Origin: a virus
Lineage: Duplodnaviria > Caudoviricetes
Direction: 5' to 3' (one strand)
IMG/VR virus record: IMGVR_UViG_3300003324_000282
Span: 1-55,920 of that record
DNA: 55,920 nucleotides
The notes under the pieces were generated by a model, which did not search any database, had not been told where the DNA came from, and saw only the letters and a program-made list of their open reading frames with translations. Both the position numbers and the translations under genes were made by a program. This document shows positions 1-43,586 of this stretch, piece by piece. Every line of letters starts with the position of its first letter. Position 1 is the stretch's first letter.

Positions 1-40
1 CCCGAAAATATCTCCGGGGGGAAAAATTCGGGAAAAGTTT
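1..40. other. Probable left genome terminus (cos-proximal); inverted repeat CCCGAA(1-6)/TTCGGG(27-32) around AAAATATCTCCGGGGGGAAAAATT
   Basis: Non-coding end of the window, directly upstream of the small-terminase-like/HNH packaging genes; dyad visible in sequence. Confidence 0.6.
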
Positions 41-64
41 TCATGATCATCTTCTGCGTAAGCC

Positions 65-144
65 TATGGGGTTCTGCATAAAGTCTGTTAACCCCCCCGG
101 CAGACTTTGATGCTCGAACTTAAACGACAATAACTGTGCCCATA
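65..144 (+). ncRNA. Three-way-junction RNA motif, copy 1 (leader of first operon)
   Basis: TATGGG(65-70)/CCCATA(139-144); long P2 including AAAGTCTGTT/GGCAGACTTT; TTAAA junction; CG-A-CA..TG-TG P3; same architecture at 43280-43342. Confidence 0.55.
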
Positions 145-168
145 CTATAGTGAAAGGAGTTGAAACCT

Positions 169-519
169 ATGGTATCTCGTCGAGTAGATGGGGAAAAGTC
201 TAAGAAAACTCGTCGCCCAATGGCAACAACTCCTGAGGCTCAAGAGAACCGTCTCATTGGTAAAGCTGTTGATCTGGCTGAAAGACAACTGGAAGATGGA
301 ACTGCTTCTGCGCAGGTCATCACACACTTTCTTAAGCTTGGCTCGTCGCGAGAGAAACTTGAACAAGAACTCGTCGAGCAAAACATTGAACTTCAGAAAG
401 CCAAGCGAGAAAGTATGGCTTCTGCTGCTCGAGTTGAAGAACTTTACTCTGCAGCAATTAGTGCCATGCGCGCATACGCAGGACAAGAACCTCTTGAGCA
501 AGATGATGATTACGAATAG
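169..519 (+). CDS. Putative terminase small subunit
   Basis: First gene of the genome; RBS GAAAGGAG at 152-159 fits ATG 169; helical protein (EDGTASAQVITHFLK..coiled coil); position near HNH and terminase. Confidence 0.6.
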   Translation: MVSRRVDGEKSKKTRRPMATTPEAQENRLIGKAVDLAERQLEDGTASAQVITHFLKLGSSREKLEQELVEQNIELQKAKRESMASAARVEELYSAAISAMRAYAGQEPLEQDDDYE

Positions 520-528
520 GAGAAGGTA

Positions 529-1395
529 GTGATCGAACAAGATTACATAGTTCGCATAAAGAAGTACCAACCGACTGATCCACGACTTGGCCGTCATGTA
601 CGTCATGATAGCAGATCGTTGAGCTTTCCGGTAGAGGCAGAGCCACTTAATTCTCTTAAGAGTATTCGTCACATCTCTCACTTCCCAACTTTGAACCAAA
701 AGAATGTCGGAGCTTGTACTGCTTTCGCTGGAGTCAAGTGTCTCAGTTATGATACCTTTTGGTCAAGTCCTGCCATTCAGAAAGTTCTTTCTTTAAGTGA
801 GACGATGGATGATCAGTATGCTATGACGGCATATAGTGACGTAACTAAGATCGATCCATATCCAGGTACGTATCCGCCGACTGATACTGGCTCAGATGGT
901 TTGTCAGTAGCAAAACTATTCTTGAGCCGAAAGCTTATTTCAGGTTATCAGCATGCGACTTCACTTGAAGCAGCACTTACTGCTTTGGCTAAACAGCCGG
1001 TGATTGTAGGAACTACTTGGAAGTATGACATGTTCCGTCCTGACCCGCTTGATGGCAAGATGAAGATCAGCGGATCTGATCAAGGTGGACATGAGTATGT
1101 TCTCGATGAATTGGATGTAGAACGGCGGCGAGTTTGGCTTCAGAACAGCTGGGCTGATGTTTGGGGAATTCATGGTCGTGCTTACATGACCTGGGATGAA
1201 CTGGGTGAGTTATTGGATGATGATGGCGACTGTACAGTCTTCATTTCATCTTCGCAACCAGCGCCAACTCCGATTCCGCCTACACCGCCGTCTCCTCAGC
1301 CAGCACCAGTTGTTGACTTGAAGGCTGTATTCCAGAGTGATGTAGTCTTTGAGATCAACAAGGTGTTACAAAGTTTTCAAAATAAGCTCGGCTGA
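529..1395 (+). CDS. Papain-like (C1 family) cysteine peptidase
   Basis: Q-x-x-x-G-A-C (QKNVGAC), GGHEY histidine, QNSW..WG asparagine motif; Pro-rich C-terminal linker. Confidence 0.8.
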   Translation: MIEQDYIVRIKKYQPTDPRLGRHVRHDSRSLSFPVEAEPLNSLKSIRHISHFPTLNQKNVGACTAFAGVKCLSYDTFWSSPAIQKVLSLSETMDDQYAMTAYSDVTKIDPYPGTYPPTDTGSDGLSVAKLFLSRKLISGYQHATSLEAALTALAKQPVIVGTTWKYDMFRPDPLDGKMKISGSDQGGHEYVLDELDVERRRVWLQNSWADVWGIHGRAYMTWDELGELLDDDGDCTVFISSSQPAPTPIPPTPPSPQPAPVVDLKAVFQSDVVFEINKVLQSFQNKLG

Positions 1396-1778
1396 TGAGT
1401 AATCCAGTAGCTCTTATTCGTCGAATACGTGATAAGAGAGAGTCATACAAAGCAATCGTACTGTGGTGTCCTGGCTGTGAAATTACCGATGAGGATGGGC
1501 ATGTTCATGCTGGTCTTCATATGCTTCCTATCAATGGTAATGCCAAGAAGCGACCAACCTGGAAGTGGAATGGTGATTTGGTCCAGGTTACTCTTACCCC
1601 GAGCATACTCACAAAGTCTAATCGTGGTGTTATTCCCTTTAGATGTCATTCCTTTCTTCGACAAGGTCGATGGGAATTTCTAAACGATTGCACACACCCA
1701 TTGAAAGGCCGTACTGTTCCAATGGTGCCTTTACCAGATTGGGTGATTCATGAAGACGAGAAACTACCGCGAACTTAG
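1395..1778 (+). CDS. DUF6527-like Cys/His protein
   Basis: CPGC..H..WNG..TLTPSI..CHSFL..G.WEFL.DCTH pattern; TGATG coupling with upstream gene. Confidence 0.6.
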   Translation: MSNPVALIRRIRDKRESYKAIVLWCPGCEITDEDGHVHAGLHMLPINGNAKKRPTWKWNGDLVQVTLTPSILTKSNRGVIPFRCHSFLRQGRWEFLNDCTHPLKGRTVPMVPLPDWVIHEDEKLPRT

Positions 1779-2160
1779 ACGCTTGGAAACTTTTGAAGAT
1801 CGATTCGACTATCTTTCATTAAAAGGAGTGGTCGGAGAGACAACCTTTGGTTTCGATCGTTATTTGAATCAACAGTTTTATCGATCTCGAGAATGGCGAT
1901 TACTCAGAGATGAGATTATTCTTCGAGATGAAGGATGTGATCTAGGCATAATGGGTTATGAGATTCACAGCAAAATTCTTATTCACCATATGAATCCGGT
2001 GATGAAAGAAAATATCTTACATAGAGATCCTGATCTCCTTAATCCTGACTATTTGATCACGACTACAATTCAAACACATAATGCCATTCACTACGGTGAC
2101 AAGAATTTACTTCCAAAAGTATTTGTCGAGCGTAGAAGAGGCGACACTAAACTATGGTAA
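1750..2160 (+). CDS. HNH endonuclease (packaging-associated type)
   Basis: FY.S.EW..LRD.I..RD.GC..IHHMNP..THNAIH; located near the genome end. Confidence 0.8.
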   Translation: MKTRNYRELRRLETFEDRFDYLSLKGVVGETTFGFDRYLNQQFYRSREWRLLRDEIILRDEGCDLGIMGYEIHSKILIHHMNPVMKENILHRDPDLLNPDYLITTTIQTHNAIHYGDKNLLPKVFVERRRGDTKLW

Positions 2161-2169
2161 GGGGTTGGG

Positions 2170-2871
2170 ATGGCTAAAACTATTAACTATGACAAGCATG
2201 TAAAGAACCTGATTGACGAACTTAGCAATACTGGGCATGTTTATCACACGAAGTACAAGAAGACTTCGATTACATTTCACCATAATGGCGGTAATCTTTC
2301 CTTTGAGGACGTCCTTAGAACCTGGACATTCAAGAAGGCTTCCGCACACTTCGACTCTGATGAGTTTGGAAACATTGCTCAGTATGTCAATGCCGAAGAG
2401 TATGCTTGGGCTGTCGGCAATACCGAAGGTAACAAGTCGTCTATCAGCATTGAGATGGCCAACAAGACTGGCGCCCCACATTGGGAGGTTGGTGAAGCCA
2501 CCTGGGAGAGTGCTGCTCGTCTTGCCGGCTGGTTATTTGCTCATGTGATCGAGGAAGAGCCAACTCATAGGAATGTTTTGTTGCATGATCATTGGTCAGC
2601 AACAGAATGTCCCGGCCCTTATGTTCACTCAATCTATAAGCAGCTTCTTGCTGAGGTACAGCGTTGGTATCGGCATTTCCATAAGCTGATTCAGGAAAAG
2701 CATAGTAAAGAAGAACCGCATCATGATGAACTCCAGAAGCATTATACTAAATCTGAAGAGATCATCAGAACCATTCAGGATCTCATGGATGTTAAGGTTG
2801 ATGGCAAGTGGGGACCCAAGACCGATGAAGCTGTTCTTGCATTCAGGAAGAAACACCTGAACAAGTTCTAG
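2170..2871 (+). CDS. Endolysin, N-acetylmuramoyl-L-alanine amidase (Amidase_2) with C-terminal PG-binding-like motif
   Basis: TFHH, SAHF, WAVGN, SIE, H..WSATECPG motifs; C-terminal VDGKWGPKT. Confidence 0.85.
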   Translation: MAKTINYDKHVKNLIDELSNTGHVYHTKYKKTSITFHHNGGNLSFEDVLRTWTFKKASAHFDSDEFGNIAQYVNAEEYAWAVGNTEGNKSSISIEMANKTGAPHWEVGEATWESAARLAGWLFAHVIEEEPTHRNVLLHDHWSATECPGPYVHSIYKQLLAEVQRWYRHFHKLIQEKHSKEEPHHDELQKHYTKSEEIIRTIQDLMDVKVDGKWGPKTDEAVLAFRKKHLNKF

Positions 2872-2880
2872 GAGGTGACC

Positions 2881-3294
2881 ATGGCGGGTAGCATTCTCAA
2901 TGATACAAAGAAAATTCTTGGATTTGAACAAGATGACACCGGTTTCGATCTCGATATTCTGACACATATCAACTCGGCATTTGACACGTTGGAACAATTG
3001 GGGATCGGACCAGCTGGTGGTTTCTCGATTGAGGATGCTACTCCGACATGGGATGACTTCATTGCTTCTGATCCCCGGTACAACTCAATCAAGACCTATG
3101 TATATCTGAAAGTTCGTTTGCTCTTTGATCCTCCAACAACGTCGTTCCATCTTCAAGCGATGCAAGATCAGATTAGACAATATGAATGGCGACTCAATGT
3201 AAAGCGAGAAGATACTGCTTGGGTTAGCCCGTTCCCAGCAATTCCTTCTGAAGATGATGAAGATCCTATTATTCTTGAAGGTGGTACCGTTTAA
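2881..3294 (+). CDS. Head-to-tail adaptor-like (head completion) protein
   Basis: SIL..TKK.LG..FD.DIL.HINSAF..L.QLG..YVYLKVRLLFDPP pattern; RBS GGAGG; C-terminal IILEGGTV. Confidence 0.6.
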   Translation: MAGSILNDTKKILGFEQDDTGFDLDILTHINSAFDTLEQLGIGPAGGFSIEDATPTWDDFIASDPRYNSIKTYVYLKVRLLFDPPTTSFHLQAMQDQIRQYEWRLNVKREDTAWVSPFPAIPSEDDEDPIILEGGTV

Positions 3295-7170: not shown

Positions 7171-8916
7171 ATGGCGCTGTCAAACAGAGCTACTCCGTAT
7201 TATTACGGTCAGTTCCGTGATGCGGTTATTCGTGGAGAGATTCCAGTAAATCGTGAAGTCTCTATGGAGATGAACCGTATTGATGCGCTCATTGCCAATC
7301 CAAACATCTATTACGATGATATGGCTGTAGAAGGATTTATTCTTTATTGTGAGAATGAGCTTACTCTTACTGATGGTTCAGATCTTCATTTACTTCCTAG
7401 TTTTAAAGTATGGGCTGAACAGATCTTTTGTTGGTATTATTTCGTAACTCGAAGTGTATATGAACCATCAAAAGACAATCATGGTGGACGTTATGTAACG
7501 AAGACAATTAAGATGCGTTTAACAACCAAGCAATACCTTATTGTGGCTCGAGGTGCTGCTAAGTCAATGTATGCTGAATGCATTCAGTCGTATTTCTTGA
7601 ATGTAGATACAGCAACAACACATCAGATTACAACCGCGCCTACCATGAAACAAGCCGAAGAAGTAATGCAGCCATTTCGAACTGCTATTACCAGAGCTCG
7701 TGGCCCGTTGTTCAAGTTCCTTACTGAAGGATCGATGCAAAACACTACTGGATCTAAAGCCAATAGAGTTAAACTTGCATCGACAAAGAAAGGTATTGAA
7801 AACTTTCTTACTGGTTCTTTGCTTGAGATTCGCCCAATGACAGTGAATAAACTTCAGGGTCTTCGTCCAAAGGTTTCTACTATTGACGAATGGTTGTCTG
7901 GCGACATTAGAGAAGATGTTGTTGGTGCAATTGAGCAGGGTGCATCTAAACTTGACGACTATTTGATTGTTGCTATCAGCTCAGAAGGTACTGTTCGAAA
8001 TGGTTCTGGCGATACCATCAAAATGGAACTAGCTGACATTCTTAAAGGTGAGTATGTAGCACCACACATTTCTATCTGGCATTACAAATTAGATGAGCTG
8101 GAAGAAGTCGGCGATCCGGCAATGTGGCCAAAGGCTAATCCGAATCTTGGCGCCACTGTTACGTATGAAACGTATCATCTGGACGTGGAACGGGCGGAAA
8201 AAGCCCCCGCTTCGCGGAATGACATTCTTGCCAAACGATTCGGAATTCCGATGGAAGGTTATACTTACTTCTTTACTTATGAAGAAACTCTTACTCATCG
8301 TCGGCAAGATCCTCGAGGAATGCCTTGTTCACTTGGCGCTGACCTTTCCCAAGGTGACGACTTCTGCGCTTTTACTTTCTTGTTTCCATTGCGTAATGAG
8401 AGATTTGCAATCAAAACTAGAAGTTACATTACTTCTTTGACTTTGATGAAACTTCCTGGTGCTATGCGTCAGAAGTATGACGAGTTTATCAAAGAAGGTA
8501 GTCTTCATGTTTTGGACGGAACTGTTCTTGATATGATGGAGGTGTATGACGATCTCGATGCATTCATCATTGCAGAAGAATACGATGTTCGAACACTTGG
8601 GTATGACCCATACAACGCCAAAGAGTTTGTTACTCGATGGGAAGCAGAGAATGGTCCTTTTGGCATCGAGAAAGTCATTCAGGGTGCTAAGACCGAAACG
8701 GTCCCGCTTGGTGAGCTGAAGAATTTAAGTGAGGAAAGACTTCTCCTTTTTGATCAGGAGCTCATGTCGTTTGCTATGGGTAACGCCATTACTATTGAGG
8801 ACACCAACGGTAACAGAAAACTTCTTAAGAGACGACAAGAAGAGAAGATCGACAACGTTGCTGCCTTGATGGATGCATACGTTGCCTACAAAGCAAACAA
8901 GGAGGCATTTGAATGA
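7171..8916 (+). CDS. terL: Terminase large subunit
   Basis: ARGAAKS Walker A, IDEW Walker B, KANPNLG, GADLS..DD nuclease, KIDNVAALMDA C-terminus. Confidence 0.95.
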   Translation: MALSNRATPYYYGQFRDAVIRGEIPVNREVSMEMNRIDALIANPNIYYDDMAVEGFILYCENELTLTDGSDLHLLPSFKVWAEQIFCWYYFVTRSVYEPSKDNHGGRYVTKTIKMRLTTKQYLIVARGAAKSMYAECIQSYFLNVDTATTHQITTAPTMKQAEEVMQPFRTAITRARGPLFKFLTEGSMQNTTGSKANRVKLASTKKGIENFLTGSLLEIRPMTVNKLQGLRPKVSTIDEWLSGDIREDVVGAIEQGASKLDDYLIVAISSEGTVRNGSGDTIKMELADILKGEYVAPHISIWHYKLDELEEVGDPAMWPKANPNLGATVTYETYHLDVERAEKAPASRNDILAKRFGIPMEGYTYFFTYEETLTHRRQDPRGMPCSLGADLSQGDDFCAFTFLFPLRNERFAIKTRSYITSLTLMKLPGAMRQKYDEFIKEGSLHVLDGTVLDMMEVYDDLDAFIIAEEYDVRTLGYDPYNAKEFVTRWEAENGPFGIEKVIQGAKTETVPLGELKNLSEERLLLFDQELMSFAMGNAITIEDTNGNRKLLKRRQEEKIDNVAALMDAYVAYKANKEAFE

Positions 8917-9720: not shown

Positions 9721-10989
9721 GTGTCAACAATCGGGTCTAGATTGAAGCACGCTTGGAACGCTTTTACCAATCAAGAGAGTTCACTTCAGTCATATGGCGA
9801 TGCGGTTTCATATGGTCGTCCGGACAGAACTCGACTTAGGATTCCAAATGAACGTTCTATCATCTCCTCTATTTATACGCGTCTTAGTATTGACGTTGCT
9901 GGTGTCGATATTCGTCATGTGCGCGTCGATGATAGCGGTCGGTTTAGTGGTGACATTGATAGTGGACTTAATAATTGTCTTACTGTTGAGGCTAATTTGG
10001 ATCAAGCGGCTCGAGCTTTTAGACAAGATCTTGCGCTAACGTTATTTGATAATGGTGCCGCGGCTATTGTACCGGTCGATACATCGTTAAATCCGCTTGT
10101 GACTGGTGGATACGATATTTTGAGTCTTCGTGTTGGTGAAATTATTCAATATATGCCTCGACATGTAAAATTGAATGTTTACAATGAAGCCATTGGTCGA
10201 CGTGAGCAAATTGTGCTTGAGAAAAAGTTTGTCGCGATTGTTGAGAATCCGCTATATTCTGTAATGAATGAACCGAACTCAACTCTTCAGCGCCTTATTC
10301 GAAAGCTAAATCTTCTAGACACGATTGATGATCAGTCTGGTTCTGGAAAACTCGATCTCATTATTCAGCTTCCATATGTAATCAAATCTGAATCAAGACG
10401 ACAGCAAGCCGAACAACGTCGTCAGGATATTGAGTTCCAGTTGTCTGGAAGTAAGTACGGCGTTGCTTATACAGATGGTACAGAAAAGATCACCCAGCTT
10501 AATCGACCTGTTGAAAATAATCTATTAAAACAGGTAGAGTATCTGGTCGAGATGTTGTATGGTCAACTTGGCCTTACGCCAGAAATTATGAACGGCACGG
10601 CCGACGAGAAGGCCATGCTGAACTACAACAGTCGTACGATCGAACCAATTCTAGATGCCATTGTTGAAGCAATGCGCCGTACATTTCTTACAAAGACTGC
10701 TCGTTCACAAGGTCAGACTATTGCATATTTCCGCAATGCATTTAAGCTTATTCCACTTAGTGAGATCGCTGAGATTGCTGATGTCTTTGCTCGGAATGAA
10801 ATCGCTACTTCCAACGAAATCAGACAAATTCTTGGATGGAAGCCTCATGATGACCCAAAGGCAGATCAACTTCGGAATAGCAATATGCCACAACCAGGGG
10901 ATAGTCCTCCGACAGATCCATTGGCAAAATTGAAAGAAATTAATAATTTAAAGCGAAGTATTCCGTCCCCGTCGGGGTCGGTTGAATAA
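9721..10989 (+). CDS. Portal protein
   Basis: 422 aa between terminase and capsid; HK97-like portal features (QLGL.PEI.NGTA, TIEPIL.AI, SNEIR..LG). Confidence 0.9.
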   Translation: MSTIGSRLKHAWNAFTNQESSLQSYGDAVSYGRPDRTRLRIPNERSIISSIYTRLSIDVAGVDIRHVRVDDSGRFSGDIDSGLNNCLTVEANLDQAARAFRQDLALTLFDNGAAAIVPVDTSLNPLVTGGYDILSLRVGEIIQYMPRHVKLNVYNEAIGRREQIVLEKKFVAIVENPLYSVMNEPNSTLQRLIRKLNLLDTIDDQSGSGKLDLIIQLPYVIKSESRRQQAEQRRQDIEFQLSGSKYGVAYTDGTEKITQLNRPVENNLLKQVEYLVEMLYGQLGLTPEIMNGTADEKAMLNYNSRTIEPILDAIVEAMRRTFLTKTARSQGQTIAYFRNAFKLIPLSEIAEIADVFARNEIATSNEIRQILGWKPHDDPKADQLRNSNMPQPGDSPPTDPLAKLKEINNLKRSIPSPSGSVE

Positions 10990-11014
10990 AACAGATACGG
11001 AAGGAGACAGTCCA

Positions 11015-13075
11015 GTGGAACCGGATTTCAGCGGTTACGCAACTAAGGCTGGTCTCAAGTGCTCCGACGGCCGGACAATTATGCCTGAGGCATTCAAAGA
11101 GATGGACGGAAAAACCGTTCCGCTCGTCTGGCAACACGGGCACAAGGACCCTTCAAATGTTCTTGGCCATGCCGTTCTCGAAGCTCGTAGTGATGGTGTT
11201 TATGCTCACGCGTTCTTCAATGATACTGAGCCGGCAAAACAGGCTAAGGCGCTTGTTGAGCACAAGGACATTACGTCTTTGTCTATTTATGCTAACAGTC
11301 TTGTTGAAAAGGGCAAAAAGGTATTTCACGGTGTTATTCGTGAGCTTAGTTTGGTTCTTTCCGGTGCCAATCCTGGTGCAGTGATTGACAATATTCGTAT
11401 TGCTCACAGCGATGACCCAGATGACATCGAGACGTTGGATGATGAAGCGATCATTTATACTGGTCTCGATCTCGTGCATTCTGATGAGGGTGCTGAAGCT
11501 GAGAAGAATGCTGATGGCGGGAAGAATGAAGAGAACGCTGAAGGCGGGAACAATGAAGAGAACGCTGAAGGCGGGAAGAATGAAGAGAACGCTGAAGGTG
11601 AAGAAAACGAAGATAATGCTGACAATGAAGAAGTTCAGCATGCTGCAACTAATGACAAAACCGTTCAGGATGTCTTTGATTCCTTTACAGCAGAGCAAAA
11701 GAAAGTTGTTCATTACCTGATCGGAGCCGCTCTCGAAGAAGCTGGCTCCACTGCAGAGCACTCCGACATGGAAGGACAGGAAAACATGGGAACGCGCAAC
11801 GTTTTCGAGCGAGATGGGAATGGCGGCGGTAGCACCGAGACGCATGAGCTGTCGCACGATGCCATCGCAGGGATTGTGGCAGACGCAAAGCGTCGCGGAT
11901 CTCTGAAAGCAGCTGTTGAAGACTATGCAATTCAGCACGGTATCGAGAACATTGACGTTCTTTTCCCGGATGCCAAGAACCTTGATGACGTTCCTGAGTG
12001 GGAGAAGCGTCGTACTGAGTGGGTTGCTGGTGTTTTGAACACTACTCGGCACACCCCATTCTCTCGGATTAGGACTCGTTCTGCTGATCTTACTCACGAA
12101 GAGGCTCGTGCCAAAGGTTACATCAAGGGTAATCTTAAGAAGGAAGAATTCTTCGGTGTTACAAAGCGTACTACCACTCCGACTACGATCTACAAGAAGC
12201 AGCAGCTTGATCGCGATGACATGCTCGACATTACAGACTTTGATGTCGTTGTCTGGCTCAAGGGTGAAATGCGTCTTATGCTCGAAGAGGAAATTGCTCG
12301 GGCTATTCTGATTGGTGACGGTCGAGACGTTGCTCACGAAGACAAGATCAAGGATCCGATGGGTGCTGCTGAAGGTGCTGGTATTCGTTCAATTCTGTAC
12401 GACCACGAGCTTTATGTGACGCATGTGAATGTTGGGCTGCCGGCTACCAATGCAGATTACAACGATGTCGTGGAAGCTGTCATGCGCGCACGTCGTTTCT
12501 ACAAGGGTACTGGTATGCCGAACTTCTACACGACAACTCAGACTTCGGTCGAGATGTTGCTGTCGAAGGACCAGTTTGGACGTCGTCGTTGGAACAGTAA
12601 GGAAGAGTTGGCTAACGCGCTGGGTGTTGGTCAGGTTATCGACGTTGAGGTCATGGACCAAGAGCCGGATCTGCTTGGCATCATTGTCAACCTTGCAGAC
12701 TACTCGGTTGGTACTGACCGTGGTGGCGACATCACCATGTTCGATGACTTTGATATCGACTACAACCAGTACAAGTACTTGATCGAGACTCGTCTGTCTG
12801 GTGCTCTTACCAAGATCAAATCTGCTATGGTTGTTCACCGTCAGGCTGTTGGTGACGTTCAGGTTACGCCGACTGCTCCGGACTTTGACGGCACGACAAT
12901 CACTATTCCGACGGATGCCAATGTCGACTACTTCGCTGATGGCTCACCGGTTGCTGACGCAGCCACGGTTCCGGTTCCGGCTGGAACCACAGTGGAGATC
13001 ACGGCTACTCCGACAGCTGGACACTTCTTCGCTACTAACGAAGAGGACCAGTGGAGCTTCACTAACAACGCCTGA
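11015..13075 (+). CDS. Prohead protease-scaffold-major capsid fusion with C-terminal Ig-like domain
   Basis: FSGYA, VPLVWQH, LSIYA, ELSLVLSGANPGA of HK97-family protease; acidic linker; HK97-fold capsid region; RBS AAGGAG before GTG 11015. Confidence 0.9.
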   Translation: MEPDFSGYATKAGLKCSDGRTIMPEAFKEMDGKTVPLVWQHGHKDPSNVLGHAVLEARSDGVYAHAFFNDTEPAKQAKALVEHKDITSLSIYANSLVEKGKKVFHGVIRELSLVLSGANPGAVIDNIRIAHSDDPDDIETLDDEAIIYTGLDLVHSDEGAEAEKNADGGKNEENAEGGNNEENAEGGKNEENAEGEENEDNADNEEVQHAATNDKTVQDVFDSFTAEQKKVVHYLIGAALEEAGSTAEHSDMEGQENMGTRNVFERDGNGGGSTETHELSHDAIAGIVADAKRRGSLKAAVEDYAIQHGIENIDVLFPDAKNLDDVPEWEKRRTEWVAGVLNTTRHTPFSRIRTRSADLTHEEARAKGYIKGNLKKEEFFGVTKRTTTPTTIYKKQQLDRDDMLDITDFDVVVWLKGEMRLMLEEEIARAILIGDGRDVAHEDKIKDPMGAAEGAGIRSILYDHELYVTHVNVGLPATNADYNDVVEAVMRARRFYKGTGMPNFYTTTQTSVEMLLSKDQFGRRRWNSKEELANALGVGQVIDVEVMDQEPDLLGIIVNLADYSVGTDRGGDITMFDDFDIDYNQYKYLIETRLSGALTKIKSAMVVHRQAVGDVQVTPTAPDFDGTTITIPTDANVDYFADGSPVADAATVPVPAGTTVEITATPTAGHFFATNEEDQWSFTNNA
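11504..11599 (+). repeat. 27-bp tandem repeat (~3.5 copies) encoding NAEGGKNEE
   Basis: GGCGGGAA(G/C)AATGAAGAGAACGCTGAA repeated in the acidic linker. Confidence 0.9.
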
Positions 13076-18488: not shown

Positions 18489-18872
18489 ATGGGAATGATT
18501 TCATTCAGATCTCGTGGCTCCACTCAACATATGGAGTCGTTTCTTCGACGAATGCAAACACTTGATATTCGCAGCATTGTTGAACCCTATGCACAGCAAG
18601 GTGTTGAAGCGCTGCGGGCTGCTACTCCAGTAGATTCGGGGTTGGCAGCTCAGTCATGGGGTTATGAAATTGAATCAAATCGAAGTGGTGTTACTATCGC
18701 ATGGACGAACAGCGATATCGAGAATGGTTTCCATGTTGCCGTCATGCTTCAGTACGGTTATGGGACAGGTACAGGCGGATATGTTCAAGGTCGTGATTAT
18801 ATTAATCCGGCCATCAAACCTATATTTGACCAGATAGCCGACGCAGTATGGAAGGTGGTGACCATGTCATGA
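18489..18872 (+). CDS. HK97 gp10-like neck/tail completion protein
   Basis: ATPVDSG...SW, LQYGYGT..GGYVQGRDYINPA pattern. Confidence 0.7.
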   Translation: MGMISFRSRGSTQHMESFLRRMQTLDIRSIVEPYAQQGVEALRAATPVDSGLAAQSWGYEIESNRSGVTIAWTNSDIENGFHVAVMLQYGYGTGTGGYVQGRDYINPAIKPIFDQIADAVWKVVTMS

Positions 18873-21800
18873 GCAGCATTGATGAGAGAGTTGTTGAAGC
18901 TAAGTTTGATAATTCTCAGTTTCAACGCAACATCAAATCTACTCAAGATAGCTTGGATAATTTCAAGAAAAGCTTGAACATGGATGGTGCCACCAGAGGC
19001 ATATCGGGATTAGCTTCTGCTGCGTCTACTGTAGCTAACCGTTTCAACGTCATGCGGGTTGCAGCATACACCGCAGTGGCTACAATTGCGCATCAACTTA
19101 CCATTGCTGGCGAAAATCTGGTTAGATCGTTTACTGTTGGACCACTTATCGATGGTCTACATGAGTATGAAACTCAGCTTAATTCAGTTCAGACGATTCT
19201 TGCTAATACTCAGTGGGAACATAAAAATCTTGATGATGTTAACAAGGCTCTCAATGAGCTGAATCATTACTCGGATAAAACGATTTACAACTTCACCGAG
19301 ATGGCTCGAAACATTGGTACATTCACCGCGGCTGGCGTTGGTCTGGATAAGTCAGTAGCATCTATTAAGGGCATTGCAAACCTTGCTGCTGTTTCTGGTT
19401 CTAATTCTCAGCAAGCGTCCACCGCAATGTACCAGCTTTCTCAAGCTATCTCATCTGGTACCGTTAAGTTGATGGACTGGAATTCAGTTGTCAATGCTGG
19501 CATGGGTGGTAAGGTTTTCCAAGATTCACTTAAAGAGACCGCTCGAGTACATGGTGTCAAAATTGATGAGATGATCAAGAAGGAGGGTAGTTTCCGTAAT
19601 ACTCTCCAGAACGGATGGCTTACATCAAAGATTCTAACTGAGACGCTTAGTAAGTTCACCGGCGATCTGTCTCGCAGTCAGCTCAAGCAGATGGGTTATA
19701 CTGAGAAGCAAATCGACGGCATCATTAAGATGGGTAAGACGGCAACCGATGCCGCTACCAAGGTCAAGACCTTTACCCAGCTTATGGGGACGCTTAGAGA
19801 AGCTGCTGGCTCCGGTTGGGCCAAGACCTGGCAACTTATTATTGGTAACTTCAATCAGGCAAAGCATGTCTGGACTGATGTTTCAAATGTTCTTGGTGGC
19901 ATGATTCAGTCTTCAGCCAAGGCACGAAATAACATGCTTAAAGATTGGGCTGCACTTGGCGGCCGTAAAGCCTTGATTGATGGCATCTCCAATGCTTTTC
20001 ATGCTTTGATGTCGGTGTTGGATCCAATTAGAGATGCATTTCGAGAGATCTTCCCTAGGACAACTGGTGCTCAGCTTGCTGAGATGACAAAGAGCTTCCG
20101 CGATCTGATGGAAAACTTCAAAATAGGAGCAGATACTGCGGACAAGCTTAAGCGTACCTTTGCTGGTGTATTTGCAGTATTTGACATTGGTTGGCAGGTT
20201 ATCAAAGCTGTTGCACATTTCATTGGAGAACTTATCGGTGCCTTCGCAAAAAGCTCCGGAGGACAAATCCTGGAATTCACCGGAAGTATTGGTGATATGC
20301 TTGTTGCATTGGACAATGCTATCAAGAAAGGTCAAGGTCTTACCAAATTCTTTGATGGTTTGGCAAACATGCTTAAACCAATCGTTGCAACATTGGGTAT
20401 TACTAGAATTGCATTAGTTGACATTTTTACTGGTGTGGCAACAGGTGTCAATCAAGCTGCCGGTATTATTCCACGTTTTCTTCATACTCTTGGTAACATG
20501 ATCGATAAGATTCGTGAGTTCTTTAACGGTATGTTCCAAGGTGTGGACTTCGACAATGTCTTGAATCTTTTAAATGCTGGACTATTCACTGGCGTTCTGC
20601 TATTGATACGTAAATTTATCAATCACCTGACTCGAGATAAAGGTCCAGGTCTGATTGAACGTGTTATCAATCGAATTACTCAGCCATTTGAAGATTTAAC
20701 CGCGACACTTCAGAAGATGCAGGCAGCATTACAGGTTGCCACACTTATTCAACTAGCTATTGCAGTTGGTGTTCTTACTGCATCAGTCTTTACACTGTCA
20801 AAGATCAATGCCAAGGATCTATCTAAGTCACTTGCTGCTATTGGCGGTATGTTCGCTGAACTTATGGGCGCTCTATTCTTGTTCAACAAGGTTGGTGGCG
20901 CTAAAGGTCTGTTCACAACCGCTAGTGGTCTTATTCTACTGGCAACCGCTATTAGAGTGCTGGTATCTTCAGTCAAGGCATTATCTGAACTCAGTTGGGG
21001 TCAACTGGCTAAGGGTATTACTGGAGTAACTGCTCTGATCGGTGGATTGATTCTAGCAACTAGGGGTATCGGTAGTAATGCTGCAGGCATGATTCGTGCT
21101 GGTGCCGGACTTATCCTTTTGTCCACAGCGATCAAGGTTCTTGTCAGTGCAGTATCTGACATGGCTGAACTTAGCTGGGGTCAGATGGCTAAGGGTCTGA
21201 CCGGTGTAGCAGCAATGTTGACTGCTCTTGCGTTATTTACCAAGTTTGGTGACACTAATGCCGGTGGGATTTTGCAGGGTGCTGGATTAATTCTCCTTGC
21301 TACTGGAATTAAAGTCTTAGCGAGCGCTGCAACTGACTTTGCCAAACTTAGCTGGGGTCAGATGGCTAAGGGTCTTACTAGTATCTCTGCAATTCTAGTT
21401 GCGTTCAGCTTATTCTCTAAAACTGTGGGTAATCCAGTTTCTTTGGTTGCATCAGGTGCAGCTTTGGTAATGATTTCTGGCTCTATGGTTGTGTTGGCCA
21501 AGGCTATGGATCTATTTTCCAGGTTGGGCTGGGGTCAGATGACTAAGGGTCTGGTCTCAATGGCTGGTGCACTTGCCATTATTACTGTTGCTCTGAATGC
21601 AATGCCTATTACTTCTGCACTTTCTGCTGCTGCATTAGTTGGTATTTCTGTTGCTTTAACTGTGCTTGCGGGTGCACTGAAGGTAATGGGTGATATGAGT
21701 TGGGAGTCTATTGCTAAGGGTTTGATTACTCTTGCTGGCGCTCTTGTTATTATCGCACAAGCGATGCTCGAGATGGAGTTCGCTCTCCCAGGTGCTGCTG

Positions 21801-24445
21801 CATTGTTAGTTGTGTCTGCAGCATTGGTACCTCTTACTGCCGTACTCAAGACGCTTGGCAGTATGGGGTGGGAGAATATTCTCAAGGGACTGGTTGCATT
21901 AGCTGGTGCACTTACTGTTATCGGTGTAGCAGCCCTATTGCTTACCCCAGTTATTCCATCATTGTTCAGTTTGGCTGGGGCTATTACTCTACTAGGTGTT
22001 GGCTTTGCTGCAATCGGAGCCGCGGTATATTTGTTTGCCAGTGGTTTGCAGATTCTAGCTTTATCCGGTGCAGCAGCTGGATCAGCTATCAAGTTGCTGG
22101 TTGAAGATATTGTCAGTCTTCTACCCTATATGGCAAGGGCCGTTGGTACCACATTGGTTCAGCTGTCGCAGGCCATTGTCAAAGCCATGCCGAACTTGAT
22201 TGTGGCAACAATTGCACTTATTGATGGCATGTTGGTTGTTATCAACCGTGAAGGTCCGAAAATCATCAAGACTTTCACCAAGATGATTCTTGAATTGGTA
22301 GATGAGCTGGTTAAGGCTATTCCAAAGATAGCTGCAGCAGCGCTCAAGTTAATGATCGGTATTGTTGAGGCTGTGGATAGGAAAGCACCCACAGTTGTCG
22401 ACAAGATTACACAGATGATTGTCGATATTCTCCATGCAATGGCTCGTAACATGCCAAAGATTGTTGCGGCGGGTACAGAACTTATTGTCTCCTTCCTTGA
22501 AGGTATTGCTGCTCATATGGGCAGAATTGTCAAGGCAGGCGCCGATATTATCATCGCATGGATTCAAGGTATTTCCAAACAAGGTGTTCGTATTGCTAAT
22601 GCTGCCATGGATGCAGTCATTGACTTCGCTAATGGTTTGGCAGATGCAATCGAGAACCATATTGGTGAGTTCCGTGATGCTGGCATGCATCTTGCCTTTG
22701 CAATTGTCGATGGTATGACTTTGGGTCTTGCTTCTAAGGCTAAGTCGGTAGTTGACAAAGCTAAGGGAATTGCTAGTGGTGCATTAAATGGAGCTAAAAA
22801 GATTCTTGGTGTTTTCTCACCATCCAGAGCATTCCATGAGGTTGGTAAGCAATCAGCAATTGGTTTTGCACTGGGTATTGATGATTATGCCAAACTTTCT
22901 GAAGCTGCTTCCAAGAAAATGGCAAATGATGCACTTCAGGGAGCATCTAAAGAGTTTAAGGACGCAGTTAAGTATGTTCTTTTCGATCTGCCGAAGGGTT
23001 TGGTGGGTGGTAAGGACGAGGTCAAACAAACGATTAGTGAAACTCATGATGCCCTTCATGCTGCTGTGCAACAATCACATGAAGACATGCAACAACTTAA
23101 GCAAGATCTACATGAGTTGAAGCAGGGTCGTGACGATGATAGTAAGTCTGTTCGTGATGCTAATCAAGCGGTTGATGATGCAACTAAGAAGTATCATGAC
23201 CTAATAAATGCTAAAAAACAAGACTCAGATGCTATCAAACAAGCTAAGCAAGATATTAGTGATGCCAAAGACAAGTTGAAAGATGCTACACAAGCTCAGA
23301 AGGACCACGAACAAGCTATTAAGGACGATACTGCTGCATTAGAGCATGCTACTGCGGTACATCAACTGGCTAAGGACGCATTTGACCAGTTTAATGCCAA
23401 GATGGATACGCATAAGGCCAAGTTGATTGAACTGAGCAAAGAATACGATGAATACACAGCTAAGATCAATGCGGCTGAACAAGCTCTTCAACAGCAAATT
23501 TCTACTGAACAGAACTACAACGACCAAATTGTTCAGCAGTATAGTTCTTTGCCTGACATCTCAGCTGATACTAGTGTTGAGGATTATACCAACACACTGT
23601 CGGATCAGGTAGACAACACACAAAAGTTTATCGATGATCTGAACACACTTAGAGATCAGTTCAGTCTAAGTGATGACATGTACAAAGAACTCTTGGCTAA
23701 GGGACCAGCGATTCTACCATTTGTAGAACAGTTGTTGTCGGGTGGGCAAGCGGCTGTTGATACGTTGAATAACTTGACAGCTCAGCTGGATACCGAAGCC
23801 AAGACTCTTGGTGACACAGCATCCAAGTCACTTTACCAAGCTGGTGTCGATGCTGCACAGGGTCTGCTTGATGGTCTCAAGAAAGATCAAAATAGGATCG
23901 AAAAGCAGATGGAACACATTGCTGAGGTTATTGCCAAGGCAATCCGTAAGGCTTTGAAGATCAAGTCTCCGTCACAAGTTATGTTGGAAATTGGTCAATA
24001 CGTGGGCCAGGGTCTTGTTGATGGTATGCATTCTATGGAGGGCGACATCGACAAGCAAGGTAACAAGTTGGTGCAGAAGATGAATGCTTATATTAAGCAA
24101 CTTACCGACATGTTAGCTCAAGCAGAAGCCATTACGCCGACAATCACACCGGTATTGGATCTATCTAAGGTTCAGAAGGATGCTGCAAAGATCAGTAGTA
24201 TTGTAGCAAGCCCAATTACAGTATCAACAGCATATTCTAGTGCGAGTCAAGCTGCTGCTGGAGTTAATGCTAATCGAGCCGGAGTGGCTAGTGTAGATGT
24301 GAAACCAGTTGGTACTGTGGTTAGGGATGTTACCTTTATTCAAAACAATACATCTCCGAAGGCTTTGTCATCAGCTGAAATTTATCGAAACACCAATAAT
24401 CAAATTTCACAAGCGAAGGGAGCTCTGGCTAAGAATGTTGCTTAG
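18869..24445 (+). CDS. Tape measure protein
   Basis: ~1858 aa, Ala/Gly/Leu-rich helical; N-terminal tape-measure domain; LSWGQMAKGL repeats; two SPS motifs; ATGA overlap. Confidence 0.95.
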   Translation: MSSIDERVVEAKFDNSQFQRNIKSTQDSLDNFKKSLNMDGATRGISGLASAASTVANRFNVMRVAAYTAVATIAHQLTIAGENLVRSFTVGPLIDGLHEYETQLNSVQTILANTQWEHKNLDDVNKALNELNHYSDKTIYNFTEMARNIGTFTAAGVGLDKSVASIKGIANLAAVSGSNSQQASTAMYQLSQAISSGTVKLMDWNSVVNAGMGGKVFQDSLKETARVHGVKIDEMIKKEGSFRNTLQNGWLTSKILTETLSKFTGDLSRSQLKQMGYTEKQIDGIIKMGKTATDAATKVKTFTQLMGTLREAAGSGWAKTWQLIIGNFNQAKHVWTDVSNVLGGMIQSSAKARNNMLKDWAALGGRKALIDGISNAFHALMSVLDPIRDAFREIFPRTTGAQLAEMTKSFRDLMENFKIGADTADKLKRTFAGVFAVFDIGWQVIKAVAHFIGELIGAFAKSSGGQILEFTGSIGDMLVALDNAIKKGQGLTKFFDGLANMLKPIVATLGITRIALVDIFTGVATGVNQAAGIIPRFLHTLGNMIDKIREFFNGMFQGVDFDNVLNLLNAGLFTGVLLLIRKFINHLTRDKGPGLIERVINRITQPFEDLTATLQKMQAALQVATLIQLAIAVGVLTASVFTLSKINAKDLSKSLAAIGGMFAELMGALFLFNKVGGAKGLFTTASGLILLATAIRVLVSSVKALSELSWGQLAKGITGVTALIGGLILATRGIGSNAAGMIRAGAGLILLSTAIKVLVSAVSDMAELSWGQMAKGLTGVAAMLTALALFTKFGDTNAGGILQGAGLILLATGIKVLASAATDFAKLSWGQMAKGLTSISAILVAFSLFSKTVGNPVSLVASGAALVMISGSMVVLAKAMDLFSRLGWGQMTKGLVSMAGALAIITVALNAMPITSALSAAALVGISVALTVLAGALKVMGDMSWESIAKGLITLAGALVIIAQAMLEMEFALPGAAALLVVSAALVPLTAVLKTLGSMGWENILKGLVALAGALTVIGVAALLLTPVIPSLFSLAGAITLLGVGFAAIGAAVYLFASGLQILALSGAAAGSAIKLLVEDIVSLLPYMARAVGTTLVQLSQAIVKAMPNLIVATIALIDGMLVVINREGPKIIKTFTKMILELVDELVKAIPKIAAAALKLMIGIVEAVDRKAPTVVDKITQMIVDILHAMARNMPKIVAAGTELIVSFLEGIAAHMGRIVKAGADIIIAWIQGISKQGVRIANAAMDAVIDFANGLADAIENHIGEFRDAGMHLAFAIVDGMTLGLASKAKSVVDKAKGIASGALNGAKKILGVFSPSRAFHEVGKQSAIGFALGIDDYAKLSEAASKKMANDALQGASKEFKDAVKYVLFDLPKGLVGGKDEVKQTISETHDALHAAVQQSHEDMQQLKQDLHELKQGRDDDSKSVRDANQAVDDATKKYHDLINAKKQDSDAIKQAKQDISDAKDKLKDATQAQKDHEQAIKDDTAALEHATAVHQLAKDAFDQFNAKMDTHKAKLIELSKEYDEYTAKINAAEQALQQQISTEQNYNDQIVQQYSSLPDISADTSVEDYTNTLSDQVDNTQKFIDDLNTLRDQFSLSDDMYKELLAKGPAILPFVEQLLSGGQAAVDTLNNLTAQLDTEAKTLGDTASKSLYQAGVDAAQGLLDGLKKDQNRIEKQMEHIAEVIAKAIRKALKIKSPSQVMLEIGQYVGQGLVDGMHSMEGDIDKQGNKLVQKMNAYIKQLTDMLAQAEAITPTITPVLDLSKVQKDAAKISSIVASPITVSTAYSSASQAAAGVNANRAGVASVDVKPVGTVVRDVTFIQNNTSPKALSSAEIYRNTNNQISQAKGALAKNVA

Positions 24446-30433: not shown

Positions 30434-30476
30434 AAAGGCTAAGTACCCTTACAAGGTACTTGGTCTTTGTGTTTTT
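30434..30476 (+). terminator. Intrinsic terminator
   Basis: AAAGGCTAAGTACC-cttacaa-GGTACTTGGTCTTT-GTGTTTTT. Confidence 0.75.
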
Positions 30477-30560: not shown

Positions 30561-30633
30561 GCCCTACTAGCCCAATGGCAGAGGCAGAAGACTTAAAATC
30601 TTCCAAGTGTGGGTTCGAGTCCCACGTAGGGCA
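30561..30633 (+). tRNA. tRNA-Leu (anticodon TAA), short variable loop, CCA not encoded
   Basis: Acceptor GCCCTAC/GTAGGGC, D loop with TGG, anticodon arm GAAGA-CTTAAAA-TCTTC, T arm GTGGG-TTCGAGT-CCCAC, discriminator A. Confidence 0.9.
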
Positions 30634-32744: not shown

Positions 32745-32792
32745 AAGAGCAAGAGCTTTGTAGCAATACAAGGTTCTTGTTCTTTGCCTTTT
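32745..32792 (+). terminator. Intrinsic terminator (GNRA loop)
   Basis: AAGAGCAAGAGCTTTGTA-gcaa-TACAAGGTTCTTGTTCTT. Confidence 0.75.
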
Positions 32793-36904: not shown

Positions 36905-39900
36905 GTGGACTTTTATCAGATCGGCACTAAAGAAACCAAGGGCGGAGTCATTGAGATATTCCCAGACTTCACTGTTGGCCGATCTAAAGACCTCATGGTG
37001 CGTGGACGTTCTTTCTATGCAATCTGGGATGAAGAAAAAGGTCTATGGTCTACGGACGAATACGATGTACAACGTTTAGTGGACAAAGAGCTTTCTGAGT
37101 TTGCAGACAAGCTGAAGAAAGACGGACATATTTGCACTGTAAAATACCTTCGTTCGTTCAGTAGTAACACTTGGAGTCAGTTTCAGAATTTTTTGAGCAA
37201 AGTTGGAGATAATGCTCATACGCTCGACCAGAATCTGACTTTCAGTAATACCGAAGTTTCGAAGTCTGATTATATAAGTAAACGTCTACCATACCCTCTC
37301 GCCCCAGGTTCTACTCCTGCTTGGGACGAGCTGATAGGTACATTATACTCTGTTGAGGAAAGAGCAAAAATTGAATGGGCAATTGGATCAGTCGTTTCAG
37401 GAGATTCTAAGAAAATCCAAAAGTTTCTCGTCTTATACGGACCTGCTGGAACAGGCAAGTCAACAGTTCTCAATATTGTCCAAAAACTGTTCGAAGGCTA
37501 CACAACTACTTTTGAAGCTAAGGCCCTTGCTTCCTCAAATGGAACCTTCTCGACAGAAGCATTCAAAAACAATCCACTAGTTGCAATTCAACATGATGGT
37601 GATTTGTCAAAGATCGAGGATAACACAAAACTGAACTCGATTGTTTCTCATGAAGAGATGACAATGAATGAGAAGTATAAACCGAGTTATACTGCTCGCG
37701 TTAACTCCTTCTTGTTCATGGGAACGAATCAACCAGTAAAGATATCTGATGCCAAGTCGGGTATCATTCGTCGTTTAATTGATGTTCATCCTACTGGCAT
37801 CAAGATTCCGATCAATCACTATCATACGTTAATGAGCAAGATTGACTTTGAGTTAGGTGCTATTGCGCATCGTTGTCTTGAAGTCTATCAACAAATGGGA
37901 AAGAACTATTACAACGGATATCGTCCACTCGAGATGATGTTACAAACAGATGTATTCTTTAACTTCATCGAGGCTAACTACGATATTTTCAAATCACAAA
38001 ATGGTACTTCCTTGAAGCAGGCATACGCGCTATACAAAGATTTCTGTAATGATACGGGAATTGAACGACAACTTCCACAATACAAGGTACGAGAAGAACT
38101 TCGTAACTACTTTGAAGACTTCAAAGACCGAGCTGTAGTTGATGGTGAGACAATTCGAAGTTATTACTATGGTTTCACCGCACATCCATTTAAAACGCCT
38201 TCTAAGGATGCTAACACGTTCTCGTTGGTTATTGATGAAACTACATCTATATTTGAGAAGTTATATGAAGATTGTGCAGCGCAGTATGCCAAAGAAGATG
38301 GAACTCCTCAAAAGAGGTGGATTACAGTAAAGACCAAGCTTAGTGATATTGATACCAGTCAACTTCACTACGTAAAGGTTCCTGATGATCATATTGTGAT
38401 TGACTTCGATCTTAAGGACGAGAATGGTAACAAAAGCTTGGAACGAAATTTGGAAGCAGCCAGCAGCTGGCCCGCTACCTACGCCGAAATCAGCAAATCT
38501 GGATCCGGCGTGCATCTACATTACCGTTATGACGGAGACGTTAACACCCTCTCTAGAAGCTTTGCTGATGGAGTTGAAGTTAAAGTCTTCAATGGTGATA
38601 GTTCTTTGCGCCGTCGATTCACAAAATGCAACAGTGTATCGATTAGCACAATAAGTAGTGGGCTCCCTACGAAGGAGAAGAAGGTGCTTCAATCCCAAAC
38701 TATCAAGAGCGAGAAAGGTCTTCGGGAACTTATCGCTCGAAATCTACGCAAGGAGATTCATCCAGGAACGAAGCCCTCTGTCGACTTCATCAAACATATT
38801 CTGGATCAAGCATATACAGATGGTTTGACCTATGATGTCTCAGACCTTCGACCAAAGCTAATTACATTCGCAAACAACAGTACCAATAGGCCATTAGAAT
38901 GTCTTAAGATCGTACAGAGCATGAAGTTCAAATCTGAGAAAGAAACAGAATCTGTTGACACTAGAAGTAATACTACATCAACAGCGGCTATGGATACATA
39001 TTCTGCTCCAGAAGATGATGTGATTGCTCCGTTCGATACTGAAGTATTTCCAAACCTATTTATTGTGTGCTGGAAGTATCGAGGGTCTGACCAAGTAGTA
39101 AAGATGATTAACCCATCACCTACAGAAATTGAAAAACTTGTCGAGCTCAAGTTAATTGGGTATAACAATCGACGGTTTGATAATCATATTCTGTATGCAC
39201 GAATTATGGGTTATAACAATCAGCAATTGTTCGAACTCTCACAAAAATTAATCAATGGTAACACCAGTGCATATTTTGGCGAAGCATATAATCTTTCTTA
39301 TGCAGATGCCTATGATTTTATCACAGACAAAAAGAGTTTGAAGAAGTTTCAAATTGAACTAGGTTTACCTCATGTTGAACTGGATTTGCCATGGGATCAG
39401 CCAGTTCCTGATGAACTAATTGACAAAGTTGTTGAATATTGTGTCAACGATGTGCTCAGTCTTGAATCGGTAATTGAAGAGCGAGAAGCAGATTTAGTTG
39501 CTCGACAAATTCTAGCTGAGTTATCTGGTCTGTCTATCAACGACACCACACAACGACACACAGCAGCAATTATATTTGGTAAGGATAACAAAAAACCACA
39601 GAAAGATTTCGTTTATACCCATTTAAGCAAGGAGTTTCCAGGATATGAGTATGATCGTGGCGTTAGTACGTATCGTGACGAAGTTGTCGGTGAAGGCGGC
39701 TATGTTTATGCTGAGCCTGGTATGTACAACGACGTTGCTCTCCTGGATGTGGCGTCTATGCACCCGACGTCGATCGAAGAGCTAAATCTGTTCGGACCAT
39801 ATACTCCGAATTTTACCGCTCTTAAGAACGCTCGTTTGGCTATCAAATATGGTGACTATTCATCAGCTCGAGAAATGATGGATGGTAAGCTTGCGCCATA

Positions 39901-43274: not shown

Positions 43275-43346
43275 AGGTTTGTGGGGACCACGCTTTGGTG
43301 GGTGCGTGGCTTAAACGACCGACTATATCTCCGGCGCCCACAACCT
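43275..43346 (+). ncRNA. Three-way-junction RNA motif, copy 2
   Basis: AGGTTTGTGGG/CCCACAACCT; CCACGC/GCGTGG; TTAAA; CG-A-CCG..CGG-CG. Confidence 0.55.
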
Positions 43347-43378
43347 CGCAAGATATACAGGGGTTATTATGAGACCCC
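43346..43378 (+). promoter_or_regulatory. Phage promoter motif P9
   Basis: TCGCA-agata-TAC-aggggt-TATTAT-GAGACCCC. Confidence 0.8.
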
Positions 43379-43581: not shown

Positions 43582-43586
43582 TCTCG

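Follow-up and report, generated by a model that had tools for sequence, protein, structure and literature searches.

The 'species 1 and 2' RNAs of phage T4 are stable, small, structured non-tRNA molecules that are encoded within the transfer RNA (tRNA) cluster of the phage, on the same strand, and are presumably freed when the tRNAs are processed. New RNA folds that are well supported and have an invariant core are, to our knowledge, rare. Earlier folds of this kind repeatedly proved to be ribozymes, riboswitches or polymerase-binding RNAs. Phage HK022 encodes two similar put RNAs of ~70 nucleotides (nt) that act untethered to the transcript (PMC9378689). The drum, skipping-rope, DUF3800-I and FuFi-1 motifs are compact orphan RNAs of unknown function that are associated with phages or ribozymes and have many invariant nucleotides; they seldom occur in 5' untranslated regions (UTRs), and neither a riboswitch nor a self-cleaving role is considered likely for them (Weinberg et al., 2017; PMC5737381). 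Here we describe a three-way-junction RNA that occurs twice in the phage record IMGVR_UViG_3300003324_000282. The stretch analyzed, hereafter the window, comprises the whole IMG/VR virus record of 55,920 bp, the completeness of which is rated 94%. An earlier note on this DNA had described both copies and had proposed that they represent a conserved structured RNA.

Both stretches are genuine copies of a self-contained, strand-specific RNA fold that is under selection (Table 1). In sequence, the two copies were found as claimed: a single compensatory A-U to G-C swap distinguishes their P1 helices, the P2 sequences are unrelated, yet paired in both copies, and the bulged A in P3 is present in each. 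In the whole record, the exact motif pattern was matched twice in the forward direction, while no match was obtained on the reverse strand or in a read-backwards control. A covariance model of 22 sequences, consisting of the two window copies and 20 other pattern matches, likewise recovered only these two sites in the window, with 46.0 and 45.7 bits (rough E ~1e-8), the next-best window score being 12.3 bits and that of the reverse strand of copy 2 7.5 bits. Energy minimization returns the junction for copy 1 (z = -3.13, matched by none of 200 shuffles) but another structure for copy 2 (z = -1.37, matched by 19 of 200 shuffles). Folding of single copies is weaker evidence and is only in part supportive.

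A pattern scan of viral contigs yielded 109 loci, many of which fold into the junction with wholly different P2 and P3 sequences, and 21 of them passed a structural filter, compared with none of 120 reversed-pattern loci subjected to the mirrored filter. A looser pattern scan of metagenomes listed at least 119 loci, and 46 of those listed passed the structural filter. The resulting model-based family alignment comprises 64 distinct members, drawn from contigs of phages, from metagenomes, from the genomes of five actinophage isolates and from one Arthrobacter genome. Across these members 93.8% of the cells are paired (73.9 ± 1.0% in shuffles) and 174 cells are double changes (59.6 ± 7.8 in shuffles), while sliding the alignment register reduced pairing to 33-58%; P1 is paired in 93.5% of cells. 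Where pairs vary, they do so in a compensatory fashion, and covariation is seen in P2, P3 and the outer part of P1. The fourth P1 pair, for example, is U-A in 33, G-C in 15 and A-U in 4 members, and between four and six types of pair are seen at each of P2 pairs 2 to 4 and at P3 pair 4. With 64 members and a clean reversed-pattern control, the proposal of a conserved structured RNA with compensatory changes in its homologues is upheld.

The second pair of P3 is G-C in 32, G-U in 31 and A-U in 1 of the 64 members. Since G-U is thus frequent at a position where it is sensible on one strand only, the element is best described as a strand-specific RNA. The strand of the motif is also that of the window genes, of the genes upstream of the motif in the Arthrobacter chromosomal locus L223, of the neighboring tRNAs in 7 of 7 arrays and of all six ribozyme matches described below.

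The shared architecture consists of a P1 helix ending in ...GGG/CCC..., a P2 helix closed by a G-C pair, a 5-nt strand UUAAA and a P3 helix of the form CG-(bulged A)-C.../...G-YG. The core GGG-G..C-UUAAA-CG(A)C..GYG-CCC is invariant in the members found, which are 50-112 nt long (mean 74 nt) with a P1 of 3-15 bp (63 of 64 rows, L087 having been dropped). UUAAA may form a T-loop into which the bulged A is inserted. The search patterns fixed GGG(G), CTTAAACGAC and GYGCCC, and most members were found with such patterns; the invariance of the core is therefore partly built in. Whole-genome model searches of isolated phages gave matches in Circum, Argan, Scarif, Yotsuba and Figliar (Table 1), all five with an intact core and a different outer P1; the model found nothing in Streptomyces phage Scap1, Arthrobacter phage Gordon or Lactococcus phage P078. 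Two off-pattern members, L053 and L426, carry compensated changes in P3. Two copies per contig were found in the window and in L327, L364, L426 and L053.

A scan of the whole window against Rfam 15 (4227 models) returned only the tRNA at 30561-30633, and local scans at the two copies with E values up to 10 returned only noise (E 5.4-7.3, 12-13 bits). No Rfam family was matched at the motif position in 54 other motif-bearing loci, and none of the known self-cleaving classes (hammerhead, twister, twister-sister, pistol, hatchet and HDV-like) was matched on the motif. The judgment that the RNA cannot be assigned to a known family thus stands with respect to Rfam 15. A consistent location in the 5' UTR of functionally related genes, as expected of a riboswitch, was not found; the flanking proteins fall into small syntenic groups only, and the motif-bearing loci include tRNA arrays and an operon end. 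Full-text literature searches with the core string and on phage structured RNAs, ribozymes and tRNAs revealed no description of the motif. The canT RNA of Tn916 (PMC11658703) and RNA-based prophage origins (PMC7157519) were considered and set aside as unrelated in size and context. The nearest counterparts are the highly conserved orphan motifs of Weinberg et al. (2017) and, by analogy of use, the put RNAs of HK022. A catalog of 8,495 candidate RNAs from IMG/VR lists its motifs in supplements only (PMC10690425), and may already contain this motif without comment. The element is accordingly regarded as an orphan structured phage RNA outside any cataloged family, with a real chance of proving categorically new once its activity is known.

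The placement of the motif is sporadic and tied to no particular gene. Copy 1 precedes the first gene of the genome, the AAGGAG ribosome-binding site of which begins 10 nt past the copy, but this arrangement is peculiar to the window genome: the motif was absent upstream of the homologues of the first gene at 80 of 80 related loci, and conservation at this position was rejected (0/80). A conserved position after the homologues of w42320 was likewise rejected (0/67 loci). When the flanking open reading frames (ORFs) were clustered, the largest gene family spanned 6 of 33 loci, on the upstream side, and only two small syntenic groups emerged. In one of them the motif lies after the polymerase module, as does copy 2 (position A), in the other it lies before the replication genes, as in Circum (position B), a placement that is probably shared by Scarif and the other isolates. 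In L364, one copy is found 15 nt past the polymerase gene and a second 4.4 kb further on. Four of the five motif-bearing genomes examined encode the polymerase-like protein; in the fifth, an unrelated phage of 58.7 kb, the motif comes behind the endolysin region.

The one chromosomal member, L223, closes an operon: upstream of it are a methylase gene and a small ORF, and an intrinsic terminator, opposed by a convergent gene, is located 3 nt downstream. The motif was present in 1 of 151 genomes of the family of this Arthrobacter host, and a host-encoded RNA was therefore rejected; a pattern scan of the genome collection gave 30 matches, among which only the Arthrobacter locus scored as a member. 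The motif is phage-borne and not a host gene. At several loci it begins 2-33 nt past the upstream stop codon, and in 14 of 29 loci the next 25 nt contain a ribosome-binding site with a start codon. Nine rows (L206, L221, L203, L211, L218, L059, L111, L044 and L019) were omitted from the counts of adjoining ribosome-binding, terminator-like and promoter-like sites, made on 29 or 33 loci, because they are low-scoring and probably chance pattern matches. The flanks of the motif are compatible with a single-stranded state, since they are unconserved and the downstream flank is G-poor.

A second type of neighborhood consists of RNAs that are themselves processed or self-cleaving. Arrays of tRNA genes on the same strand enclose the motif in 7 of 46 metagenome loci among the matches listed, where, in our reading, it is the first element of the array in L308, L340, L393 and L416 and an internal one in L346, L371 and L395. 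The nearest tRNA is ~5-14 nt away in L308, L340, L346, L393 and L416 and farther away in L371 and L395. Two more such cases, L109 and L053, were found among the 29 viral and isolate loci, the latter also with a transfer-messenger RNA (tmRNA). In the window, the lone tRNA (+ strand, 61.1 bits) is flanked by a terminator-like hairpin and a promoter-like repeat, and 12.6 kb separate it from the nearer copy of the motif.

Rfam scans of the 54 motif-bearing loci (~276 kb), to which all ribozyme counts refer, revealed ribozymes on the strand of the motif in six loci, five of them pistol and one a type II hammerhead (Table 1). In L358 and L380, the motif starts 1-2 nt past the conserved 5' domain of the pistol ribozyme. 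According to a by-eye reading against the Rfam alignment at one locus, L358, the extended P1 of the motif stands where pistol P3 would be, and 3' of the motif is a sequence complementary to the P2 strand of the pistol. A recurrent fusion of pistol and motif in viral contigs was sought and rejected, as none of 11 pattern loci carried the 3' half of the motif. As a separate observation, a pistol-like 5' domain followed by shared blocks is present in L352 (367-830), L404 (- strand, 1440-1971), L358 (3684-3870) and L380 (844-1010). The blocks comprise an AAGGA-loop hairpin and an A-rich ...AAAAAACCGC stretch, and the arrangement suggests a larger unrecognized non-coding RNA of which the pistol would make the 5' end. 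The junction motif is found at varying places within or after these blocks.

The third neighborhood is formed by transcription signals. As had been described, a promoter-like repeat adjoins copy 2, beginning at 43346, 4 nt past the end of the copy; as a trait of the family, such a neighbor did not hold up, as it is seen in 4 of 33 members. The pattern TCGCA-N14-TANNNT was found within 20 nt downstream of the motif in these four loci (copy 2, L018, Yotsuba and Figliar) at a background of 0.002 per 90 nt, and three further cases were seen in metagenome flanks (L320, L385 and L426). The window contains seven such repeats of 32-46 nt on the + strand, at 28916, 29523, 29801, 30116, 30637, 32499 and 43346, with the consensus TCGCA-N14-TATAAT-GAGACCCC, each of which precedes a small gene. 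The conserved TCGCA is located only 13 nt from the -10-like hexamer, an unusual spacing for a -35 box of the sigma-70 type. Relatives in Gordonia, Curtobacterium and metagenomes share this signal, and the phage's own polymerase could use it as a promoter. Scans for sigma-70-type promoters around copy 1 and at the right end of the window gave matches at chance level only (19 matches in the copy 1 region, 17.4 expected). One sigma-70-like arrangement with 9 of 12 matches combines ACGACA at the start of P3 of copy 1 with TATAGT past the motif (124-151, + strand).

Neither copy is followed by a T-run, and thus neither is an intrinsic terminator by this criterion. Similar terminator-like hairpins (CCCTTACAAGG...T-run) are present on the + strand of the window at 30446-30475, 32763-32792 and 43598-43627, where promoter-like repeats and terminator-like hairpins frame short one-gene cassettes. 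At the motif-bearing loci, terminator-like hairpins 0-600 nt from the motif were found 12 times downstream versus 2 times upstream, while at 600-1000 nt the trend was reversed (0 downstream versus 4 upstream); these counts are not independent because several loci are syntenic. A terminator-like site within 160 nt downstream, as a separate hairpin, was detected in 2 of 29 loci.

We tentatively favor the possibility that the element is a self-contained RNA module that punctuates transcripts at their boundaries and is recognized by a conserved host factor. This reading is suggested because a selected fold on the transcribed strand is carried by phages independently of particular genes and is concentrated at transcript boundaries or among RNA-processing elements. 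The boundary placement itself is supported by the stop-codon, ribosome-binding-site, promoter-like, terminator and endolysin-region settings. The module would fold by itself wherever it is transcribed, and a conserved RNA-processing factor of the host would recognize its invariant junction. The module would then be freed when its unstructured, G-poor flanks are cut or when neighboring tRNAs or ribozymes are processed, which would leave either a stable structured end on the upstream RNA or a free small RNA, so that it would define and protect RNA ends rather than regulate one gene. The partner factor, the cleavage and the stabilizing effect are all elements that we infer.

Several observations weigh against such a punctuation module. 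Such an invariant core is seen more typically at catalytic or ligand-binding sites than where a nuclease is stopped, and the invariance is itself partly a matter of ascertainment, independent support coming from the isolate genomes, L053 and L426 only. The excess of terminators 0-600 nt downstream (12 versus 2) is left unexplained and fits antitermination better. ARAGORN and RF00005 call the neighboring tRNAs and never the motif, and no conserved flanking cut site or CCA-like tail was found in the flanks of the members. Finally, the motif of L358, which appears from the by-eye comparison to form the tip of the pistol P3 helix, would need a separate explanation.

The functions that had originally been put forward, namely a processing site, protein binding, antitermination or a ribozyme, are the right shortlist. 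That the junction is the candidate catalytic core of a new class of small self-cleaving ribozyme, which would cut polycistronic phage transcripts at gene boundaries, appears unlikely, and it is quite unlikely that such a candidate class serves phages, together with tRNAs, pistol and hammerhead, in dividing long transcripts into defined segments. A mean size of ~74 nt, some 20 invariant nucleotides at the junction, freely varying peripheral helices, a sporadic distribution with two copies on several contigs and the presence of known ribozymes on the same strand in 6 of 54 loci would all suit a ribozyme. Twister-sister, hatchet and pistol were found by way of regions near known ribozymes, although in the same review other motifs near ribozymes did not cleave (PMC6765202). 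Moreover, no known Rfam class matches, the junction has only one unpaired strand, the arrangement in L358 would nest one ribozyme within P3 of another, L223 lies 3 nt before a terminator, and self-cleavage would be redundant in tRNA arrays. The terminators are better accommodated by a put-like processive antiterminator, in which the nascent RNA would bind the transcribing polymerase and allow read-through of terminators and untranslated stretches. Copy 1 heads a structural operon of ~28 kb, copy 2 lies 245 nt before a terminator, the motif comes first in 4 of 7 tRNA arrays among the matches listed, the terminator of L223 follows at once, and the downstream excess of terminator-like hairpins within 600 nt (12 versus 2) has the expected direction. 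If the target were as conserved as RNA polymerase, it would be understandable that phages of different hosts share an invariant core, and a precedent is provided by the two ~70-nt put RNAs of HK022, which act untethered (PMC9378689). This reading is nevertheless improbable on balance, as put lacks a closing helix while the motif is a closed junction, promoter matches near copy 1 are no better than chance, and the nearest promoter-like site is downstream of the motif, not upstream, in 4 of 33 members. It is also found within tRNA arrays and on a pistol helix, most close relatives are without it, and the terminator count includes syntenic, non-independent loci.

An aptamer or decoy, the ligand of which would be a small molecule or a host protein such as a tRNA-directed enzyme bound at the junction, is rather doubtful. 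It could act as a sponge if released from tRNA arrays, a placement that would give a free and abundant small RNA, or as an allosteric arm if grafted onto a ribozyme helix, and the P1 of L358 doubling as pistol P3 is the layout expected of an allosteric ribozyme. The combination of an invariant junction with variable helices resembles riboswitch aptamers, and the terminator 3 nt downstream in L223 points in the same direction. However, no consistent downstream gene family was found, the neighboring genes give no clue to a ligand, and no alternative pairing of P1 with a ribosome-binding site or terminator was seen in the copies inspected. An element acting as DNA, be it a single-stranded origin, a priming signal or a protein binding site, would agree with the location of the motif around the replication module of relatives, before it at position B and after the polymerase at position A. 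Such a role is highly improbable, since one conserved pair is G-T in half of its cells, for which the opposite strand would have an A-C mismatch, and the motif is always on the transcribed strand; the tRNA-array and ribozyme settings also point to RNA.

The coordinates of the copies and of the other features are compiled in Table 1. In the window, the + strand carries all long ORFs and every gene identified. The gene after copy 1 had been called the first packaging gene; a packaging role is unsupported because its sole match is PHROG 4259, annotated as 'unknown function'. The ORF ahead of copy 2 is indeed acidic, and 9 nt separate its stop codon from the copy. The gene for the 896-aa (amino acid) polymerase-like protein is the penultimate one at the right end, and phages of the same supercluster that infect Arthrobacter, Gordonia and Streptomyces show this arrangement too. 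Homologues of this protein were found by tblastn in 250 isolated phages, every one with <60% identity, the hosts of which include Arthrobacter, Gordonia, Streptomyces, Lactococcus and others. A preprint identifies this protein as a YonO-like polymerase with helix-turn-helix domains and as the marker of the supercluster (bioRxiv 10.1101/842583). Megablast of positions 1-3000 of the window against isolated phages gave no match.

Some further features of the genome were recorded. The genes at 529-1395 and 41397-42191, 40 kb apart, both match PHROG 16701 'peptidase', and the former occupies the place of the annotated endolysin in relatives. The extremely AT-rich right end (55790-55880) contains repeated AAAATAATTTT units, and G/C runs are present at both termini, including positions 1-64. 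These sequences may represent a packaging or origin region; no terminal repeat was detected in the record by IMG/VR. In-frame tandem repeats with a period of 27 nt (11473-11607) and of 177-180 nt (20921-21552) lie within the 10982-13075 gene and within the 1865-aa ORF at 18848-24445, respectively, the latter of which probably encodes the tape measure protein.

Table 1. Location, strand and covariance or Rfam model score of the junction RNA, its neighbors and further features of the window and of related loci.
Feature	Location	Strand	Score (bits)	Remarks
Copy 1, three-way-junction RNA	65-144	+	45.7	covariance model match 63-146
Copy 1 P1	65-70/139-144	+		TATGGG/CCCATA
Copy 1 P2	71-119	+		closing pair G71-C119
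Copy 1 junction strand TTAAA	120-124	+
Copy 1 P3	125-138	+		CG-A-CA/TG-TG, A127 bulged
Copy 2, three-way-junction RNA	43280-43342	+	46.0	covariance model match 43278-43344
Copy 2 P1	43280-85/43337-42	+		TGTGGG/CCCACA
Copy 2 P2	43286-43310	+		G-C closing pair, A43287 bulged
Copy 2 junction strand TTAAA	43311-15	+
Copy 2 P3	43316-36	+		CG-A-CCG/CGG-CG, A43318 bulged
Promoter-like repeat, one of 7 copies	43346-43378	+		families D3/D4, TCGCA-N14-TATNAT-GAGACCC; 4 nt past copy 2
Terminator-like hairpin and T-run	43586-43620 (family listing 43598-43627)	+		family D11; ~245 nt downstream of copy 2
First gene of the genome, 116 aa	169-519	+		PHROG 4259 'unknown function'
Acidic ORF, 82 aa	43022-43270	+		stop codon 9 nt before copy 2; no PHROG match
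Small gene, 61 aa from ATG 43397	43397-43581	+		between promoter-like site and terminator-like hairpin
Large terminase	7171-8916	+
Portal protein	9721-10989	+
697-aa protein	10982-13075	+		head maturation protease family match
1256-aa primase-polymerase	36905-40675	+
896-aa protein	52725-55415	+		PHROG 4291 'RNA-dependent RNA polymerase', helix-turn-helix matches
Motif in Arthrobacter phage Circum			24.7	model search of genome
Motif in Arthrobacter phage Argan			34.6	model search of genome
Motif in Streptomyces phage Scarif			27.1	model search of genome
Motif in Curtobacterium phage Yotsuba			20.4	model search of genome
Motif in Gordonia phage Figliar			16.9	model search of genome
Pistol ribozyme	L380	motif strand	43.6
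Pistol ribozyme	L404	motif strand	38.6
Pistol ribozyme	L358	motif strand	38.1
Pistol ribozyme	L004	motif strand	35.3
Pistol ribozyme	L352	motif strand	33.9	just below the 34.5 cut-off
Type II hammerhead ribozyme	L031	motif strand	45.7

With more than 60 covarying examples in hand, the element is small enough for direct biochemistry, and it is present in the Arthrobacter phages Argan and Circum, which are cultivable and non-pathogenic systems. The tRNA arrays, the pistol and hammerhead ribozymes and the promoter and terminator boundaries narrow the functional possibilities. Whatever its function, the motif offers a handle on the organization of transcripts in a large group of phages with their own RNA polymerase, a subject on which nothing was found in the literature searched.

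The Weinberg motifs have their own 3' terminators, and three of them are tied to a particular protein family, while our motif is directly followed by a terminator in 1 or 2 of 29 loci and no associated family was found. The pistol ribozyme (RF02679) occurs on the same strand within 0-2 kb of the motif in 5 of 54 loci; the motif itself fails the pistol model and is without the hairpin-pseudoknot layout, and the window is without a pistol. The T4 species 1 and 2 RNAs sit among tRNA genes, whereas the window motif is not beside the tRNA at 30561-30633. The put RNAs of HK022 form two stem-loops arranged as a V, with a short triplex but without a closing P1, unlike the motif, which is closed by P1. 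No sequence similarity between the two is seen by eye, and the motif, unlike put, is also found in tRNA arrays, beside ribozymes and just upstream of promoter-like sites. Put RNAs act as RNA without a dedicated phage protein (PMC9378689), and the motif is like them in being phage-encoded, ~70 nt in size and present in two related copies in the window genome, in transcribed intergenic DNA; a location upstream of terminators, as in put, may apply to it as well.

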